From: Squalus acanthias
Lineage: Eukaryota
Reading direction: 5' to 3'
DNA: 64,000 bases
NCBI GenBank assembly: GCA_030390025.1
Contig: CM059431.1
Span: 134,542,001 to 134,606,000, forward strand
In this document: positions 8,914 to 62,990 of the stretch, in pieces
Layout of the letters: every line of letters starts with the position of its first letter
Position numbering within the stretch: position 1 is the stretch's first letter
The notes under the pieces: model-generated
What the model was told of the DNA's origin: nothing
Databases searched by the model: none
What the model saw: the letters and a program-made list of their open reading frames with translations, nothing else
Program-made: the position numbers and the translations under genes

Positions 8914-9831
8914 CTGTGGGCAGAATACAGTAGATTGAGTTTCTGTGCACTGTCGACAGTCAAAAACTATTCATGCACCTTGTAAAAAAAACCTAAAATG
9001 CAAGTGGCACATCTTTGCAAATATACTGTGTTGAAAATGTAAGCCTAATAAGTACCATCTACCTAAGTGTTTATGTTCAGCTAAAAATCACCTACTCACA
9101 CTTTATGGGATTGATAATGAGCTTCCTGTCGTTTAAAGCACAGCTCACTGTAAATCACAGCGCAACTTATTATGCACTACAATCAAATGCCCCCTTTCTG
9201 ATACAAATCTTATGAGCAGGAGTTGGCATGAACTGGGGACTGAGCATGAATCAATCAAAACCAAACAAAATCATAGAATCCTCGAATGGTAACAGCACAG
9301 AAGGAGGCCATTCAGCCCGTCGAGCCTGTGCCGGCTCTCTGCAAGAGCACTTCAGCTAGACCCACTCCCCCGCCCTTTCCCTGTAGTCCCTTTTGAAAGC
9401 CACGATTGAGTTTGCCTCCACCACCCTCTCGCTGCGTAAAAAATCATTTCCTCATGTTGCCTTTGGTTCTTTTGCCAATCACCTTAAATCTATGTCCTCT
9501 GGTTCTCGACCCTTCCGCCAATGGAAATAGTTTTTCTCTATTTACTCTGTCTAGACCCCTCATGATTTTGAATACCACTATCAAATCTCCTCTCAACCGT
9601 TTCTGCTCTAAGGAGAACAACCCCAGCTTCTCTAGTCTATCCACGTAACTGAAGTCCCTCATCCCTGGAATCATTCTCGTAAATCTTTTCTGCACCCTCT
9701 CTAAGGCCTTCACATCCTTCCTAAAGTGCGGTGCCCAGAATTGGATACAATACTCCAGTTGAGGCCGAACCAGTGTTTTATACAGGTTCATCATAACTTC
9801 CTTGCTTTTGTACTCTATGCCTCTCTTAATG

Positions 9832-10413
9832 AAATTGAGAGGTCGCACAACACCAGGTTATAGTCCAACAGTTTTATTTGAAATCACAAGCTTTCGGAGC
9901 TATCGCTCCTTCCTCAGGTGAAGTAAATTGGATACAGAATCGCCAGAGCATATATAGATGGAAAAAAAAGCATGTGTACTTTACAATTGCAGACCAATAA
10001 ATTAAATCATCCTGACTATCTGCCGAGGTGTGATAAAGTTAATTAAGTCAGCCAGGAAGGTACCACATCAAAAGACATAGCAAGATACAACTGAGACAAT
10101 GAGGTGTAGTCGCAGGGGTTCTAACGTGTCAAAAGCTGCCGTCTGTATGTAAAACGAAAAGCTTTTAAAAAAAATTTACTTTTTTACTGGGAAAATTTTT
10201 ACTTTTTTACTGGGAATCACATCTGTGAACAAGCTAACGACGACTCGAGTCCGGATCACGTCATGTATCGTGACATAAACCCAAGATCCCGATTGAGACC
10301 GTCTTCATGAGTGCGGAACTTGGCTATCAGTTTCTGCTCGATGATTTTGCGTTGTCGTGTGTTTCTAAGGTTGCCTTGGAGAACGCTTACCCGCAGATCC
10401 GAGGCTGAATGTC
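9832..10413 (-). repeat. 3' pseudo-LTR of the Penelope-like element
   Basis: 582-bp direct repeat of 12970-13551 (offset 3138); only one mismatch noticed (10112 g vs 13250 a). Confidence 0.95.
9884..9921 (-). ncRNA. Minimal type I hammerhead ribozyme motif
   Basis: Minus strand TCAC-CTGAGGA-A-GGAGC gata GCTCC-GAAA-GC-TT-GTGA: core boxes, stem I, stem II and palindromic AAGCTT stem III. Confidence 0.82.
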
Positions 10414-12934
10414 CTTGACTGCTGAAGTGTTCCCCGACTGGGAGGTAACAATCCTGCCTGGCGATTGTTGCGCGGTGCTCGTTCATACGTTGTCTCAGTG
10501 TCTGCATGGTCTCGCCGATGTACCATGCCGCGGTGCATTCTTTCCTGCAACGTATGAGGTAGACAACGTTGGCCGAGTCACATGAGTATGTACCATGTAC
10601 CTGGTGGGTAGTGTCCTCACGTGTGATGGTGGTATCTGTGTTGATGATCTGGCATGTCTTGCAGAGTTTGCCATGGCAGGGTTGTGTGGTGTCGTGGTCG
10701 CTGTTATCCTGAAAGCTGGGTAATTTGCTGCGAACGATGGTACTTCTGAGGTTAGGCGGCTGTTTGAAGGCAAGTAGTGGAGGCGTGGGGATGGCCTTAG
10801 CGAGGTGTTTGTCGTCATCGATGACATGTTGAAGGCTGCGAAGAACATGTCGTAGTTTCTCCGCTCCGGGGAAGTACTGGACGACGTAGGGTACCCTGTT
10901 GGTTGTGTCCCGTGTTTGCCTTCTGAGGAGGTCTATGCGATTTTTCGCTGTGGCCCGTCGGAACTGTCGATCGATGAGTCGAGCGTCATATCCCGTTCTT
11001 ACGAGGGCGTTTTTCAGCGTCCGTAGGTGTCCATCGCGTTCCTCCTCGTCTGAGCAGATCCTGTGTATTCGCAGGGCTTGTCCATAGGGGATGGCTTCTT
11101 TAACATGGTTAGGGTGCAAGCTGGAGAAGTGGAGCATCGTGAGGTTGTCCGTGGGCTTGCGGTAGAGTGAAGTGCTGAGGTGTCCGTCTTTGATGGAGAT
11201 TCGTGTGTCCAGGAATGAGACCGATTCTGAGGAGTAGTCCATGGTGAGTTTGATGGTGGGATGGAACTTGTTTATGTTATCGTGTAGTCTTTTCAGTGAT
11301 CCTTCGCCATGGGTCCAAAGGAAGAAAATGTCGTCGATGTATCTGGTGTACAGCGTTGGCTGGAGGTCCTGTGCAGCGAAGAAGTCTTGCTCGAACTTGT
11401 GCATGAAGATGTTGGCGTATTGGGGTGCGAATTTGGTCCCCATGGCTGTTCCGTGTGTTTGGGTAAAAAAATGGTTGTCGAAGGTGAAGACATTGTGGTC
11501 AAGGATGAAGCGGATGAGTTGTAGGATGGCGTCTGGAGATTGGCTGTTGTTGATGTTGAGTACTGAGGCTGTTGCAGCGATGCCGTCATCGTGGGGGATA
11601 CTGGTGTAGAGTGCCGATACGTCCATCGTGGCAAGGAGTGTTCCTGGTTCAACTGGTCCGTGGGTGCTGAGTTTCTGTAAGAAGTCTGTAGTGTCGCGAC
11701 AGAAGCTGGGGGTTCCCTGTACGATGGGTTTCAGAATGCCCTCGACGTATCCAGAGAGGTTCTCACATAGGGTTCCATTGCCTGATACGATAGGACGTCC
11801 GGGTGTGTTGGCTTTGTGTATCTTTGGGAGGCAGTAGAAGTCTCCCACGCGGGGAGTACGTGGGATGAGAGCGCGTAGGATGTTTTGAAGGTCTGGATCG
11901 AAGGTCTTGATCAGTCTATTGAGTTGGCGGGTGTGTTCTTTGGTCGGATCTGCGGGTAGCTGTCTGTAGTGTTCCTGGTTGTCCAGTTGTCGGTATGCTT
12001 CTTTACAATAGTCCGTTCTGTTCTGTATGACGATGGCTCCTCCTTTGTCCGCTGGTTTGATGACAATGTTGCGGTTGGTCTCGAGAGCGTGGATGGCGTT
12101 GCGTTGTGCTCGGGTGACATTCTGGACTGTCTTGTGAGTGCGGCTGATGAATCTGGCGTTGATGCATTTCCTGATAGCTTGAGCATACATGTCAAGCTTG
12201 GGGCAGCGACCCTCCGGAGGGGTCCAGTTTGACTCTTTTTTCTTCGGTTGCTGCACTGCGAGTCCCTCTGTCTGCTGTTCTGGATCATTGATTGTCTCAT
12301 TGGGTTTGTTGCTGACATCTTGGGATTTGTGGAAGTATTCCCGGAGCCTCATTCTCCTGATGAATTCCTCCGTGTCTGCCGCGAGACCGATGGGGTCCAT
12401 TTTGGTGGTTGGGCAGAACTTGAGCCCTAGGGCGAGAACTTCGATTTCGTCTGGTTGAAGGGTATGGTCGGACAAGTTGACGATGGACTTCCCTGTGGTT
12501 GCAGCCGTGGTACCGGGGGAGGCTTGGTTGCTGCTGGTGGTGATGCCGAGTTTCTCAAGCTTCCTGTTCTTGATGCGCATGTAGGCAGCGTAGTTCCGTT
12601 GCCTCGTCTGTTTGGTGGTGTCTCGTAACTGGTCTGCTGTGTCCTGAGCACAGGCTGAGAGCATGGACTCTATCTTGGTTTCGAGGTTGTGGCGTTTGCT
12701 GTAGAGCTGGTGTACGAGATGGTTGAGGAGTGTGCGAGAGGTACGACGGCAGAGTCTCTCAGCGTAGTCTGTGTTGTATGTCGACTTGAGTGGGTTCGTG
12801 ATCTGTAGTCCTTTCGGGATCTTGTCTGCTTTCTTGCATCTCTGTAGATACTTGATGTCGGTGTCGATATGCGCGATCTTCTTGGCGATTCTCTCCACTT
12901 TGAGCCGGCAGTTTGTGGTGTCGATAGTGGTCAT
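10256..12934 (-). CDS. Penelope-like RT/GIY-YIG endonuclease polyprotein (892 aa from first ATG)
   Basis: Uninterrupted ORF; KPADKG, LPKIHK, GRPIVS, MDVSALYTSI, GTAMG, RYIDD, FLD; Cys linker CHGKLCKTC; NVVYLIRC...WYIGET...LRQRMNEH...GLN. Confidence 0.95.
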   Translation of the reverse strand: MTTIDTTNCRLKVERIAKKIAHIDTDIKYLQRCKKADKIPKGLQITNPLKSTYNTDYAERLCRRTSRTLLNHLVHQLYSKRHNLETKIESMLSACAQDTADQLRDTTKQTRQRNYAAYMRIKNRKLEKLGITTSSNQASPGTTAATTGKSIVNLSDHTLQPDEIEVLALGLKFCPTTKMDPIGLAADTEEFIRRMRLREYFHKSQDVSNKPNETINDPEQQTEGLAVQQPKKKESNWTPPEGRCPKLDMYAQAIRKCINARFISRTHKTVQNVTRAQRNAIHALETNRNIVIKPADKGGAIVIQNRTDYCKEAYRQLDNQEHYRQLPADPTKEHTRQLNRLIKTFDPDLQNILRALIPRTPRVGDFYCLPKIHKANTPGRPIVSGNGTLCENLSGYVEGILKPIVQGTPSFCRDTTDFLQKLSTHGPVEPGTLLATMDVSALYTSIPHDDGIAATASVLNINNSQSPDAILQLIRFILDHNVFTFDNHFFTQTHGTAMGTKFAPQYANIFMHKFEQDFFAAQDLQPTLYTRYIDDIFFLWTHGEGSLKRLHDNINKFHPTIKLTMDYSSESVSFLDTRISIKDGHLSTSLYRKPTDNLTMLHFSSLHPNHVKEAIPYGQALRIHRICSDEEERDGHLRTLKNALVRTGYDARLIDRQFRRATAKNRIDLLRRQTRDTTNRVPYVVQYFPGAEKLRHVLRSLQHVIDDDKHLAKAIPTPPLLAFKQPPNLRSTIVRSKLPSFQDNSDHDTTQPCHGKLCKTCQIINTDTTITREDTTHQVHGTYSCDSANVVYLIRCRKECTAAWYIGETMQTLRQRMNEHRATIARQDCYLPVGEHFSSQGHSASDLRVSVLQGNLRNTRQRKIIEQKLIAKFRTHEDGLNRDLGFMSRYMT

Positions 12935-12969
12935 GATGCGGAGATGCCGGTGTTGGACTGGGGTGGACA

Positions 12970-13551
12970 AAATTGAGAGGTCGCACAACACCAGGTTATA
13001 GTCCAACAGTTTTATTTGAAATCACAAGCTTTCGGAGCTATCGCTCCTTCCTCAGGTGAAGTAAATTGGATACAGAATCGCCAGAGCATATATAGATGGA
13101 AAAAAAAGCATGTGTACTTTACAATTGCAGACCAATAAATTAAATCATCCTGACTATCTGCCGAGGTGTGATAAAGTTAATTAAGTCAGCCAGGAAGGTA
13201 CCACATCAAAAGACATAGCAAGATACAACTGAGACAATGAGGTGTAGTCACAGGGGTTCTAACGTGTCAAAAGCTGCCGTCTGTATGTAAAACGAAAAGC
13301 TTTTAAAAAAAATTTACTTTTTTACTGGGAAAATTTTTACTTTTTTACTGGGAATCACATCTGTGAACAAGCTAACGACGACTCGAGTCCGGATCACGTC
13401 ATGTATCGTGACATAAACCCAAGATCCCGATTGAGACCGTCTTCATGAGTGCGGAACTTGGCTATCAGTTTCTGCTCGATGATTTTGCGTTGTCGTGTGT
13501 TTCTAAGGTTGCCTTGGAGAACGCTTACCCGCAGATCCGAGGCTGAATGTC
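12970..13551 (-). repeat. 5' pseudo-LTR of the Penelope-like element
   Basis: Copy of the ORF 3' end plus 3' UTR placed upstream of the ORF. Confidence 0.95.
13022..13059 (-). ncRNA. Minimal type I hammerhead ribozyme motif (second copy)
   Basis: Identical to 9884-9921. Confidence 0.82.
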
Positions 13552-16352
13552 TCTTAATGAAGCCCAGGATCCCGTATTCTTTTTTAACCGCTTTCTCAAC
13601 CTGCCCTGCCACCTTCAACGATTTGTGCACATATACCCCCAGGTCTCTCTTTTCATGCACCCCCTGTAGCATTATACCCTTTAGTTTATATTGCCTCTCC
13701 TCGTTCTTCCTACCAAAATGTATCACTTTGCACTTTTCTGCGTTAAATTTCATCTGCCATCTGTCCGCCCATTTCACCAGCCTGTCTATATCTTCTTGAA
13801 GTCTATCACTATCCTCCTCACCGTTGACTATACTTCCAAGTTTTGTGTCATCTGCAAATTTTGAAATTGTGCCCTGTATTCCCAAGTCCAAGCCATTAAT
13901 ATATATCAAGAAAAGCAGTGGTCCTAGTACCGACCCCTGGGGAACACCACTGTATACCTTCCTCCAGTCCGAAAATCAACTGTTCACCACTACTCTCTGT
14001 TTCCTATCACTTAGCCAATTTCGTATCCATGCTGCCACTGTCCCTTTTATTCCATGGGCTTCAACTTTGCTGGCAAGCTTATTATGTGGCACTTTATCAA
14101 GAGCCTTTTGGAAGTCCATGTACACCACATCAACCACATTGCCCTCATCAATCCTCTCTGTTACCTCATCAAAAAACTCGATCAAGTTAGTTAAACACGA
14201 TTTTCCTTTAACAAATCCGTGCTGGCTTTCCTTAATTAATCCACACTTGTCCAAGTGACTGTTAACTTTGTCCCTGATTATAGTTTCTAAAAGCTTCCCC
14301 ACTACCGAGGTTAAACAGACTGGCTTGTAGTTGCTGGGTTTATCTTTACACCCTTTTTTGAACAAGGGTGTAACATTTGTAATTCTCCATCCTCTGGCAA
14401 CACCCCCATATCCAAGGAGGATTGGAAGATTATGGCCAGTACCTCCGCGATTTCCTCCTTAGCCTCCCTCAGCATCCTAGGATGCATCCCATCCGGTCCT
14501 GCTGACTTATCAACTTTAAGTATAGACTGTCTTTCTAGTACCTCCTCTTTATCAATTTTTATCTCATCCAGTATCTCCACTACTTCCTCTTTCACTATGA
14601 CTTTGGTAGCATCTTCTTCCTTGGTAAAGACAGATGCAAAGTACTCATTTAGTACCTCAGCCATACCCTCTGTCTCCATGCGTAGAGCTCCTTTTTGGTC
14701 CCTAATCGGCTCCACCCCCTCCTCTTACTACCCGTTTATTATTTATATCCCTATAGAAGATGTTTTAATTCCCTTTTATGTTAGCTGCCAATCTATTCTC
14801 ATATTCTCTCTTTGCCCCTCTTATTTTCTTCTTCACTTCCCCTCTGAACTTTCTATATTCAGTCTGATTCTCACTTGTATTCTCAACCTGACATCTGTCA
14901 TATGCCCCTTTTTTTACTCTCTATCTCTTTCATCATCCAGGGAGCTCTGGCTTTACTTGCCCTACCTTTTCCTCTCATGGGAATGTACCTCGACTGCACC
15001 CGAACCACCTCTTCTTAAAGGCAGCCTTTTTTTGAGCCAGGTGTCCATTATCGCCATGACATCATATTTCTATGTGGCTATTTGCGCCTGCAGCTCACCA
15101 ACCTTATTTACCACACTTCATGCGTTTACACAGATGCATTGTAAACCTGTCTTAGACCTTCTTGTATTCTCTCTTAGTCTGACCCCATCTAATACAGTAC
15201 TATTTCTTTCTCTAGTGCTATCTGTCTCTCTCCATCCTTTGTGCACTTTGTTTCTCCTTTCTAATGCTACATCCTGGTGCCCATCCCCCTGCCAAATTAG
15301 TTTAAACCCTCCCAACAGCACTAGCAAACGCCCCCCCCACGAGGACATTGGTCCCGGCTCTGTTCAGGTGCAACCCGTCCGACCTGTACAGGTCCCACCT
15401 CCCCCAGAACTGGTCCCAATGTCCCAGGAATCTGAAGCCCTCCCTCTTGCACCATCTCTCCAGCCACGCATTCATCTGCTCTATCCTCCTGTTTCTATAC
15501 TCCGGCTCCCGTGCAACTGAGACTGTAAAGCGCCTTTTCCACAGCAAGCTTACATCGAAAGGCCCTTTCCCACAGCCTGCATGGAAACTTAGCAAAATCA
15601 AATCAAATTAGGAGAGTTGACAACATAATAAAAAGTACTTGTATTGATATAGCCCCTTATCATGCCCTTTGCCATACTGATATTTATCAAAATATTGGAG
15701 AACTAAACACCAGAGCTTTGACAGCAGACTGAGGCCAGCAAAAGAAGAAAGAGAACAGGTGATGCAATTGGAATGAAGAACTGGACAAAGTTCAATGGGG
15801 GAATGCCATTCAATGTGTAGGATACAAAAGTCTTAAACGCGAAATATTTCTAGGTGTCTTTTGTATGATTGTATGTGGAGAATGATGAATGGATAAGAAT
15901 ATAGGTTACAATTTCCTATCACCTGTTTGAAACAAAACATCTGTAGTGCTATAGTACTAACCCTTTATACCATACACCTTCTACTCCTATACAACACAGC
16001 CGGTCTATCATGCTCACTCATACACCTGGCCTGATTAAACAGAAAATCCATGGCTGCTGTAAGCAGGATCCTGACAAGACAGTCAGTAACCAAAACAGGG
16101 TCACAGGGCTTAACTCTTTTTGCAAAATAATACAAGTTCAGAGAGCTGGACCATTCCGCAAGTTCTCAGCAGCAGTTCATGAAATTAGTTGGGCTCAGCA
16201 ATAGTACTTAGGGGACAGACTCCCAGCCAGAATAGGAAATATGAATCTGTTTGCTTATTTAATGCTACAATGCAACTGAGAATTTTTTAAGTTTCTCCCC
16301 AAACTTTTGTAATTCTGCAGAAACAGTACAGCATTCTGGCCCTAACCATAGT

Positions 16353-25889: not shown

Positions 25890-26072
25890 ACCCCCCGTCT
25901 CTGCACCTGCTTAAAATCTGTTACATCTCCAGCTTTTTCCAGTTCTGATGAAGGGTCCCAGACCTGAAACGTTAACTCTGTTTCTCTCTCCACGGATGCT
26001 GCCTGGCCTGCTGAGTGTTTCCAGCGTTTTCTGTTGTTATTTCAGATTTCCAGCATCCGCAGTATTTTGCTA
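25890..26072 (+). mobile_element. Short Penelope-derived non-coding element
   Basis: Contains a hammerhead motif and gatgctgcctggcctgctgagtgtttccagc, which is shared with the 3' end of the Penelope remnant at 62943-62975. Confidence 0.7.
25941..25977 (+). ncRNA. Minimal hammerhead ribozyme motif
   Basis: AGTT-CTGATGA-A-GGGTC cca GACCT-GAAA-CG-TT-AACT; palindromic AACGTT stem III. Confidence 0.75.
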
Positions 26073-62480: not shown

Positions 62481-62990
62481 AAGGAGATGGTAATGGGACA
62501 AGTTAAGAAACAAAAGATGGCTCTAGATGAAGTGTAAATAGCGATGGCAGAATGAAAGACAGCTGCCATGTGAGAGAGAGGAGAAAAAAAAGATAGGGGC
62601 TTCATTGGAACAGTGTAAGAGGCCGAGGATGGTGAGGTCTGAGAGGGAGTGGAGCGGAGAATTAAAGTGACAGGCGACCGGGAGCTCGGGGTCACCCTTG
62701 CGGACTGAAGGCAGGTGTTCCACAAAGCGGTCACCCAATCTGCGTTTGGTCTCCCCAAAGTAGAGGAGACCGCATCGTGAGCACTGTTCCAATGAAGCTC
62801 AACGTAAGCTTGAGAAACAGCACCTCATCTTTCGATTAGGCACTTTACAGTCTTCTGAACTCAACATCGAATTCAACAATTTCAGACCATAACCTCTGCC
62901 CCTATCTTTTTTTTCCATTTTTTTTCTGTTTCTCTCTCCATAATGCTGCCTGACCTGCTGAGTATTTCCAGCATTTTCTGTTTTTATTTC
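62480..62990. mobile_element. Penelope-like remnant (second family) with internal inversion
   Basis: Minus strand CSRCGLLYFGETKRRLGDRFVEH...PVACHFN...HCSNEA; plus strand HCSNEAQRKLEKQHLIFRLGTLQ...LNIEFNNFRP*. Confidence 0.85.

Follow-up and report, generated by a model that had tools for sequence, protein, structure and literature searches.

Paired minimal hammerhead motifs in the flanking repeats of a young Penelope-like element of Squalus acanthias

A 64,000-nt stretch of the Squalus acanthias genome (contig CM059431.1 of assembly GCA_030390025.1, positions 134,542,001 to 134,606,000; hereafter the window) carries on its minus strand a Penelope-like element (PLE) in whose flanking repeats the same 38-nt motif occurs twice. 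Judging from the sequence, both motifs are genuine minimal hammerhead ribozymes, located in the flanking repeats, or pseudo-long terminal repeats (pLTRs), of an intact and very young PLE. An earlier reading of the same letters (the sequence-only reading) had proposed minimal, dimer-type hammerheads in both pLTRs of a PLE with a reverse transcriptase (RT) and a nuclease, and the motif, the repeat and the profile matches to RVT_1 and GIY-YIG all agree with that proposal. On balance, we lean towards the further view that these are PLE-type hammerheads which, once paired, would form active sites and cut after U17. The features of the locus are as follows.

13022..13059, minus strand: upstream minimal type-I hammerhead, an exact 38-mer in the 5′ partial copy, with the architecture of the published minimal hammerheads
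9884..9921, minus strand: downstream minimal type-I hammerhead, an exact 38-mer in the 3′ pLTR of the full unit
9873..9878, minus strand: AAUAAA, 9 nt past the predicted cut, a putative signal read from the sequence
10256..12934, minus strand: single, intact open reading frame (ORF) of 892 aa with RT and GIY-YIG parts, from the ORF list and profile matches
12970..13551, minus strand: upstream pLTR, a 5′-truncated copy with the last ~49 codons, the 3′ untranslated region (UTR), the hammerhead and the 3′ end
9832..10413, minus strand: downstream pLTR, the matching 3′ part of the full unit, from repeat comparison
9822..9831, minus strand: target-site duplication CATTAAGAGA, downstream copy, roughly 10 bp
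13550..13559, minus strand: target-site duplication CATTAAGAGA, upstream copy, roughly 10 bp

The hammerhead motifs and the element that carries them

At both sites the minus strand reads UCAC CUGAGGA A GGAGC GAUA GCUCC GAAA GC UU GUGA, 38 nt and 0 mismatches, exactly where the sequence-only reading had placed this string. In hammerhead numbering, helix I pairs UCAC (2.4-2.1) with GUGA over 4 bp and is followed by the C3UGAGGA9 box, one extra A, helix II (GGAGC/GCUCC, with the loop GAUA), G12-A14, the bases A15.1, G15.2, C16.2 and U16.1, then U17 as the cleavage-site nucleotide and finally G1.1UGA. By direct reading the catalytic core (C3-U-G-A-N-G-A9 ... G12-A-A14, U16.1, H17) is complete, and the extra A noticed earlier after the CUGANGA box is there as described. 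The earlier description of stem III as the palindrome AAGCUU was right about the palindrome and overstated its extent, given that only AGCU (15.1-16.1) can pair, the outer A being the core A14 and the outer U being U17. A loose box pattern matches twice within the window where 0.05 matches are expected.

The predicted cuts, at 9888/9887 and 13026/13025, are spaced by exactly 3138 nt and bracket the intact 892-aa RT + GIY-YIG ORF, so the claimed 3138-nt unit does enclose the whole reading frame (12934-10256). AAUAAA closely follows the motif, as had also been claimed, starting 9 nt past the predicted cut, and a twin lies at 13011-13016 on the minus strand, a position derived from the 3138-nt offset. 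The two copies of the motif are not independent observations, because both sit in a direct repeat of 582 nt with 1 mismatch (13551-12970 against 10413-9832, 99.8% identical). As a side observation, the frame of the ORF stays open for 29 codons 5′ of its AUG, and the open frame begins at the 3′ edge of the ribozyme because the UGA within the helix I strand GUGA (13022-13024, minus strand) closes it there.

The encoded protein matches RVT_1 with an E value of 1.4e-8 (35.1 bits), and its last 181 residues match GIY-YIG at 1.9e-4 (22.1 bits), which is borderline as the cutoff is 22.6; the residues VVYLIRC...WYIGET can be read in the ORF and protein relatives carry PF01541. Ahead of the endonuclease lies a linker of the form P-C-HGKL-C-KT-C (C-x4-C-x2-C). 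A CX2-5CxxC linker is reported to be present in Neptune and absent in Penelope and Poseidon elements (Craig et al., 2021), and the element thus appears Neptune-like, a clade placement based on the linker motif alone. The nearest named proteins come from sharks, with 80-94% identity, and relatives with 35-45% identity are found in turtles, ticks and a crinoid.

The locus is best read from its sequence as a single insertion of a very young Neptune-like PLE, ~1.19 units long in all and made up of a 5′-truncated partial copy and then a full unit; the pLTRs arise because the partial copy and the full unit each place the 3′-UTR module once. The element ends at 9832 (...CUCAAUUU), without a poly(A) tail and without an extension into the AC-rich start of a further unit, here called the head. 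The host of the insertion is a long interspersed nuclear element (LINE) reverse-transcriptase gene, pieces of whose ORF remain at 13394-13753 and 9444-9794. This LINE site (...GGGCTTCAT[T/A]AA..AGAGGCATAGAG...) has been struck repeatedly by the PLE family of the window, in both orientations: in the window at 9790-9831 and 13550-13600, and at the loci L031, L035, L054, L032, L036, L058 and L119. The window copy and L035 have the identical 5′ truncation point (q2554), which would suit a transcription start, yet the letters of their target duplications differ. Far from the element, at 62628-62762 on the minus strand, the endonuclease of another PLE has left a dead fragment (44% identity over 45 aa), and there is no hammerhead close to it.

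Conservation of the motif and anatomy of its copies in the genome

The 3.7-Gb assembly was searched for the window 38-mer, which gave 5649 matches at up to 3 mismatches and 0 for the control. A loose motif pattern (box, 13-16 nt, GAAA, two G/C, U, H) gave 127,371 hits, about one per 29 kb, compared with 755 for the reversed pattern used as a control. The first 100 listed loose hits all belong to two superfamilies, ~65 and ~35 by hand count.

A member of the second lineage is present in the window itself, where a descriptor scan found another minimal hammerhead at 25941-25977 on the plus strand, AGUU CUGAUGA A GGGUC CCA GACCU GAAA CG UU AACU, with ACGT as its palindrome; if up to 3 mismatches are allowed, there are 6843 copies of this 37-mer in the genome (control 0). 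A copy of this second family from elsewhere in the genome, L101, is a frameshifted PLE whose RT is 35% identical to that of the window element (E 2e-77), and the UTRs of the two elements gave no significant nucleotide match (best E 2.6). L101 also has a long frame open from an AUG within the CUGAUGA box, the later part of which looks like the N-terminus of the window ORF.

To describe structural conservation we aligned 42 variants, 40 of them fetched by hand from the 100 listed hits and chosen for distinctness, plus the two window motifs; duplicates and two degenerate rows were dropped, the rows are related to one another, and the core letters, invariant throughout, are imposed by the search pattern. 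In this alignment 96.1% of the cells are paired, a value that none of 500 shuffles attains (71.0%); with slid partners the figure is 15-47%. Pairs have changed on both sides in 8 of 11 cases overall (4/4 in helix I and 3/5 in helix II), and the covariation score of 0.70 exceeds those of the shuffles (0.28) and of the slid controls (0.12 or less). In the first superfamily, helix I runs through the series C-G, U.G and U-A (UCAC/GUGA, UUAC/GUGA, UUAC/GUAA); the 10.1-11.1 pair is G-C in 23 of the 42 rows, G.U in 11 and A-U in 7. All but one of the 42 rows have an extra base after A9, which the pattern does not impose; it is A in 40 rows and U in 1. At the centre of helix III, 23 rows have GC and the other 19 have CG, and a palindromic GC or CG centre is found in 99 of the first 100 listed loose hits, GG and CC being equally permitted by the pattern. 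Pairing in helices I and II, as well as in the palindromic helix III, is thus kept by compensatory change across two PLE lineages, and the motif shows both conservation and covariation among family copies, whose lack, together with failed cleavage, the sequence-only reading had named as a refutation. The motif goes beyond chance because of the 5649 genome matches against 0 and the covariation among the 42 variants.

The family is a young one. All 51 scored protein copies, out of 70,816 first-look candidates, are full-length, stop-free and 99-100% identical. Of 30 loci whose ORF is full-length, 27 have a hammerhead upstream, some of these loci overlapping the same arrays. A blastn map of 60 loci and their flanks gave a picture typical of PLEs, with heavy 5′ truncation, inverted 5′-to-5′ pairs, arrays of at least 3 units and target duplications of 10-12 bp flanking insertions that exceed one unit. 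The 3′ ends of the copies lie at ...CAAUUU, or 28-48 nt further on, within the head of the next unit (the published PLE 'tail' of 30-40 bp). Contig depth is ~58,500 at the 3′ end and drops to ~107 near the 5′ end (two runs, kind not stated). Between 48 and 72% of the 31-mers of the unit are present in runs labelled as at least 5 different organisms, and therefore near-identical copies are common to several species. Where a head follows a tail, the tail sequence GUUGGACU is able to pair with AGUCCAAC in the AC-rich head over the junction (window 12900-13060, minus strand); this stem forms only in that order, in a tandem or a circle, and is located where many copies end.

Proposed cleavage, rival explanations and the helix-III palindrome

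In the mechanism that we favour, a single motif cannot form helix III, and two motifs, either both pLTR copies of one read-through transcript or those of two transcripts, would pair through AGCU and so create two active sites. Each site would cut after U17, probably slowly and with assistance from the protein that the element encodes. If a transcript runs through both pLTRs, the two cuts would release an RNA of 3138 nt, beginning with a 5′-OH G and a 91-nt leader, containing the whole ORF and ending in a 2′,3′-cyclic phosphate; translation, a circle and use as template are candidate fates for this RNA. In isolation the 38-mer RNA is predicted to form helices I and II with a minimum free energy of -12.9 kcal/mol (z -2.36, with 5 of 200 shuffles as good).

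Several results weigh against cleavage of this kind. In a 159-nt context helix II is kept and helix I is out-competed in the predicted fold; pairing through AGCU contributes no more than a weak -2.5 kcal/mol by itself, and two separate monomers (-24.2) score slightly better than the helix-III dimer (-22.5); for dimer cleavage these energy estimates are neutral to weak. The single raw RNA run compared with the element, from another organism, gave 0 matching reads, which speaks neither for nor against cleavage. The covariance-model search by which the sequence-only reading proposed to check the motif was negative: the Rfam hammerhead models gave 0 hits at the gathering threshold and 0 at E<=10 on 4.2 kb, and on 91 nt at E<=10 there was no hammerhead, only a chance RybB match. 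We read this miss as a limit of the models, which would probably expect a helix III, and not as evidence against the motif. Among genomic copies, 3′ ends at the cut site number 0, as they do at the +6 control. For 5′ ends three positions were sampled (-6, 0 and +6), with 103 ends at the cut, 80 at -6 (~35 being one recurrent class) and 41 at +6; a recurrent composite makes up part of the 103, and once the flank filter and the recurrent composites are taken into account, the excess at the cut is at most ~2-fold. Reverse transcription of the copies starts 53-107 nt downstream of the cut, and a linear template would therefore be broken if the 3′ hammerhead were cut; this favours cleavage that is slow or regulated, or else re-joining. 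From the literature, the hammerhead of PAc, a Poseidon element of Anolis carolinensis, is reported to be dispensable for insertion in vitro, which core mutants leave unchanged (Frangieh et al., 2024, PMC11167929), and Naiad PLEs are described as thriving without hammerheads (Craig et al., 2021).

When 12 of the cut-site junctions were fetched, one output proved to be the partner copy rather than the junction, and the others comprised the recurrent composite, inverted arms that meet at or beside the cut and are separated by 0-8 filler bases, two junctions with an insertion at the cut (AAA in one, a single G in the other) and a single junction with a plain flank. There is thus no clear footprint of cleaved ends among the genomic copies. 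A recurrent class, found at ~35 places, in which GGTG is joined to AAGCTTGTGA..., looks like an amplified variant without most of the hammerhead.

These observations have to be set against four other explanations. That a recently amplified repeat merely carries a chance resemblance is a reading to which we give almost no credence: the two window copies are one duplicated stretch and the youth of family 1 leaves most of its copies near-identical, as such a reading would have it, whereas a second PLE lineage, its protein only 35% identical, keeps the core with different and compensating helices, the palindromic centre found in 99 of the 100 listed hits would be expected by chance in half, and the reversed pattern retrieves 755 hits against 127,371. 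Chance resemblance is thus refuted, as far as sequence evidence goes, by the loose-pattern control and the covariation. It is also quite improbable, in our judgment, that the 3′ hammerhead and AAUAAA serve 3′-end formation or mRNA dosing, through poly(A) removal or termination, and not template making. AAUAAA does follow the cut site in the window family and a cut there would strip anything added downstream; the bases after helix I, however, differ between subfamilies among the 42 variants (uuuc, aauu, uuuu, cugu), because of which the signal is not a conserved partner of the ribozyme, and the genomic copies have no poly(A) tail.

The remaining two explanations we regard as unlikely, and about equally so, while giving each more weight than a role in 3′-end formation. 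In the first, the motif is retained mainly for its RNA fold or for binding protein, or rides along selfishly with the element, cleavage being a by-product as far as transposition goes. The normal insertion of PAc hammerhead mutants in vitro speaks for it, as do the lack of RNA-sequencing ends at the cut reported for PAc (PMC11167929), the suggestion of Craig et al. (2021) that hammerheads may 'simply parasitize PLEs', the very low in vitro activity described for the PLE minimal hammerhead (PMC4209133) and the absence or weakness of ends at the cut among our genomic copies. It has to contend with a core that is invariant in 42 variants, though imposed by the pattern, with the retention of catalytic needs that the pattern does not impose (pairing of helices I and II, the base after A9 and the palindromic 15.2-16.2), and with the report that PAc RNA cleaves with the element's protein and is rescued by compensatory C3/G8 changes (PMC11167929). 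The second is the circle model, a hypothesis of 2014 in which the cut 3138-nt unit is closed by a host ligase and the RT travels round the circle more than once, yielding partial tandems. It is in print (PMC4209133, PMC6765202) and would accommodate insertions of more than one unit that carry a single target-site duplication, together with the arrays of at least 3 units; the many copies that end 28-48 nt into the next head must have had templates in which head came after tail, that is, a circle or a tandem. Moreover, the window copy has no head past its 3′ end, so that a linear read-through RNA lacks the start site, which a circle would recreate. Against this, linear transcripts of tandem arrays account for the same structures, circles are traced in the literature we cite only for small non-coding retrozymes, and PAc is reported to insert from uncut RNA in vitro (PMC11167929). 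Dimer-dependent cleavage by genuine hammerheads, probably slow and protein-assisted, stays the reading that we prefer.

The palindrome of helix III recurs at inverted insertions in the genome. Close inverted pairs of 3′ fragments, in which both arms extend to the cut and no more than 10 nt separate them, are found at 145 sites, and in 26 of the first 50 listed the spacer is AAGCTT, each of these being a perfect palindrome through the helix-III palindrome; the control placed 6 nt downstream gave 69 sites without a dominant class. Six AAGCTT-joined sites that we fetched (e.g. L114-L119) are independent, with different flanks, with target duplications readable at three, and at AAGCTT-joined sites the head extension is often on one arm or its adjoining flank. 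A weaker joining hot spot was also seen at the near-palindrome TTTCAAA. The simplest reading is that two complementary DNAs (cDNAs), primed from both nicked strands, were joined where their identical 3′ ends pair, joining being confined to the palindrome because identical 3′ ends can pair only there. PAc is reported to extend both strands (Frangieh et al., 2024, PMC11167929). We suggest, as a speculation with the odds against it, that the helix-III palindrome has a dual role, serving hammerhead dimerisation in the RNA and marking the point at which converging reverse transcripts would be joined, whether in the cDNA or in a dimer formed by two template RNAs, to give the inverted-repeat insertions of PLEs. 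If true, this dual role, along with a circular or dimeric template, would link the odd architecture of the ribozyme to the odd insertion architecture of the PLE class.

Comparison with known systems

Small self-cleaving RNAs are known from other retroelements. Hepatitis delta virus (HDV)-like ribozymes lie 5′ of R2 and L1Tc (PMC6765202) and, as could the window motifs, may free element RNA from a co-transcript; they differ in being another ribozyme class with a monomeric fold and efficient cleavage, and are not family. A closer likeness exists with animal non-LTR retrozymes (PMC7229834; Li et al., 2026, bioRxiv), which are described as sharing dimer-prone type-I hammerheads, tandem copies and a proposed unit-length processing and circularisation, and which are thought to derive from PLE pLTRs. 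Those elements are ~170-400 nt long and non-coding, with circular RNA shown, and we rejected this identity for the window element, whose 3138-nt unit holds an intact 892-aa ORF.

A further relative, with biochemistry of its own that does not extend to the window element, is PAc (Frangieh et al., 2024, PMC11167929). Both are RT + GIY-YIG PLEs with tandem or partial tandem copies, a hammerhead near the pLTR-ORF junction and AT-rich targets. According to that work the PAc hammerhead cleaves only with the element's protein and is rescued by C3/G8 changes, and reverse transcription starts internally, in the AC-rich stem that opens the next unit; the head extensions of the window family fit such a start, and the copies of both elements end within the AC-rich stretch at the next unit's start ('tail'). 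In PAc the ORF begins inside the hammerhead, whereas in the window element 91 nt separate the cut from the AUG downstream of it, and the C-x4-C-x2-C linker of the window ORF sets it apart from Penelope and Poseidon by the criterion of Craig et al. (2021).

The arrangement of hammerheads in PLE flanking repeats was described in 2014 and is not new in kind. Cervera & De la Pena (2014, PMC4209133) reported minimal hammerheads in the pLTRs of metazoan PLEs, inactive as monomers and of low activity as dimers, and proposed that transcripts are processed to unit length, ligated into circles and reverse-transcribed over more than one unit; a review (PMC6765202, 2019) restates the dimer, excision and circle hypothesis. 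Dimerisation, unit-length excision and circularisation, which the sequence-only reading had offered as its own deduction, are accordingly hypotheses already published in these two sources. The published record on PLE hammerheads, as far as these sources go, is one of in vitro cleavage that is only weak and depends on dimers or on help from protein, with no ends seen in vivo. The window family adds a host lineage and very high motif counts, with no new mechanism. It would be well suited to the study of what PLE hammerheads do, as all 51 scored ORFs are full-length and 99-100% identical and the hammerheads run to thousands of near-identical copies, and the second lineage in the same genome offers natural compensatory variants. 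The hosts listed in the text of PMC4209133 are fishes, coelacanth, frog and reptiles, and the nearest named proteins of our element are from sharks; the 127,371 loose hits compare with ~9,000 given for Xenopus and ~4,000 for coelacanth, a rough comparison since the descriptors differ. In structure the window motif agrees at every point with the minimal hammerheads of that report, sharing the type I topology without a helix III hairpin, the palindromic 15.2-16.2, G10.1-C11.1, the unpaired base between 9 and 10.1, a helix I of 4-5 bp and a long helix II, and its genomic setting is also the one described there, with pairs spaced by ~3 kb around an RT ORF, close inverted pairs and thousands of solo copies.

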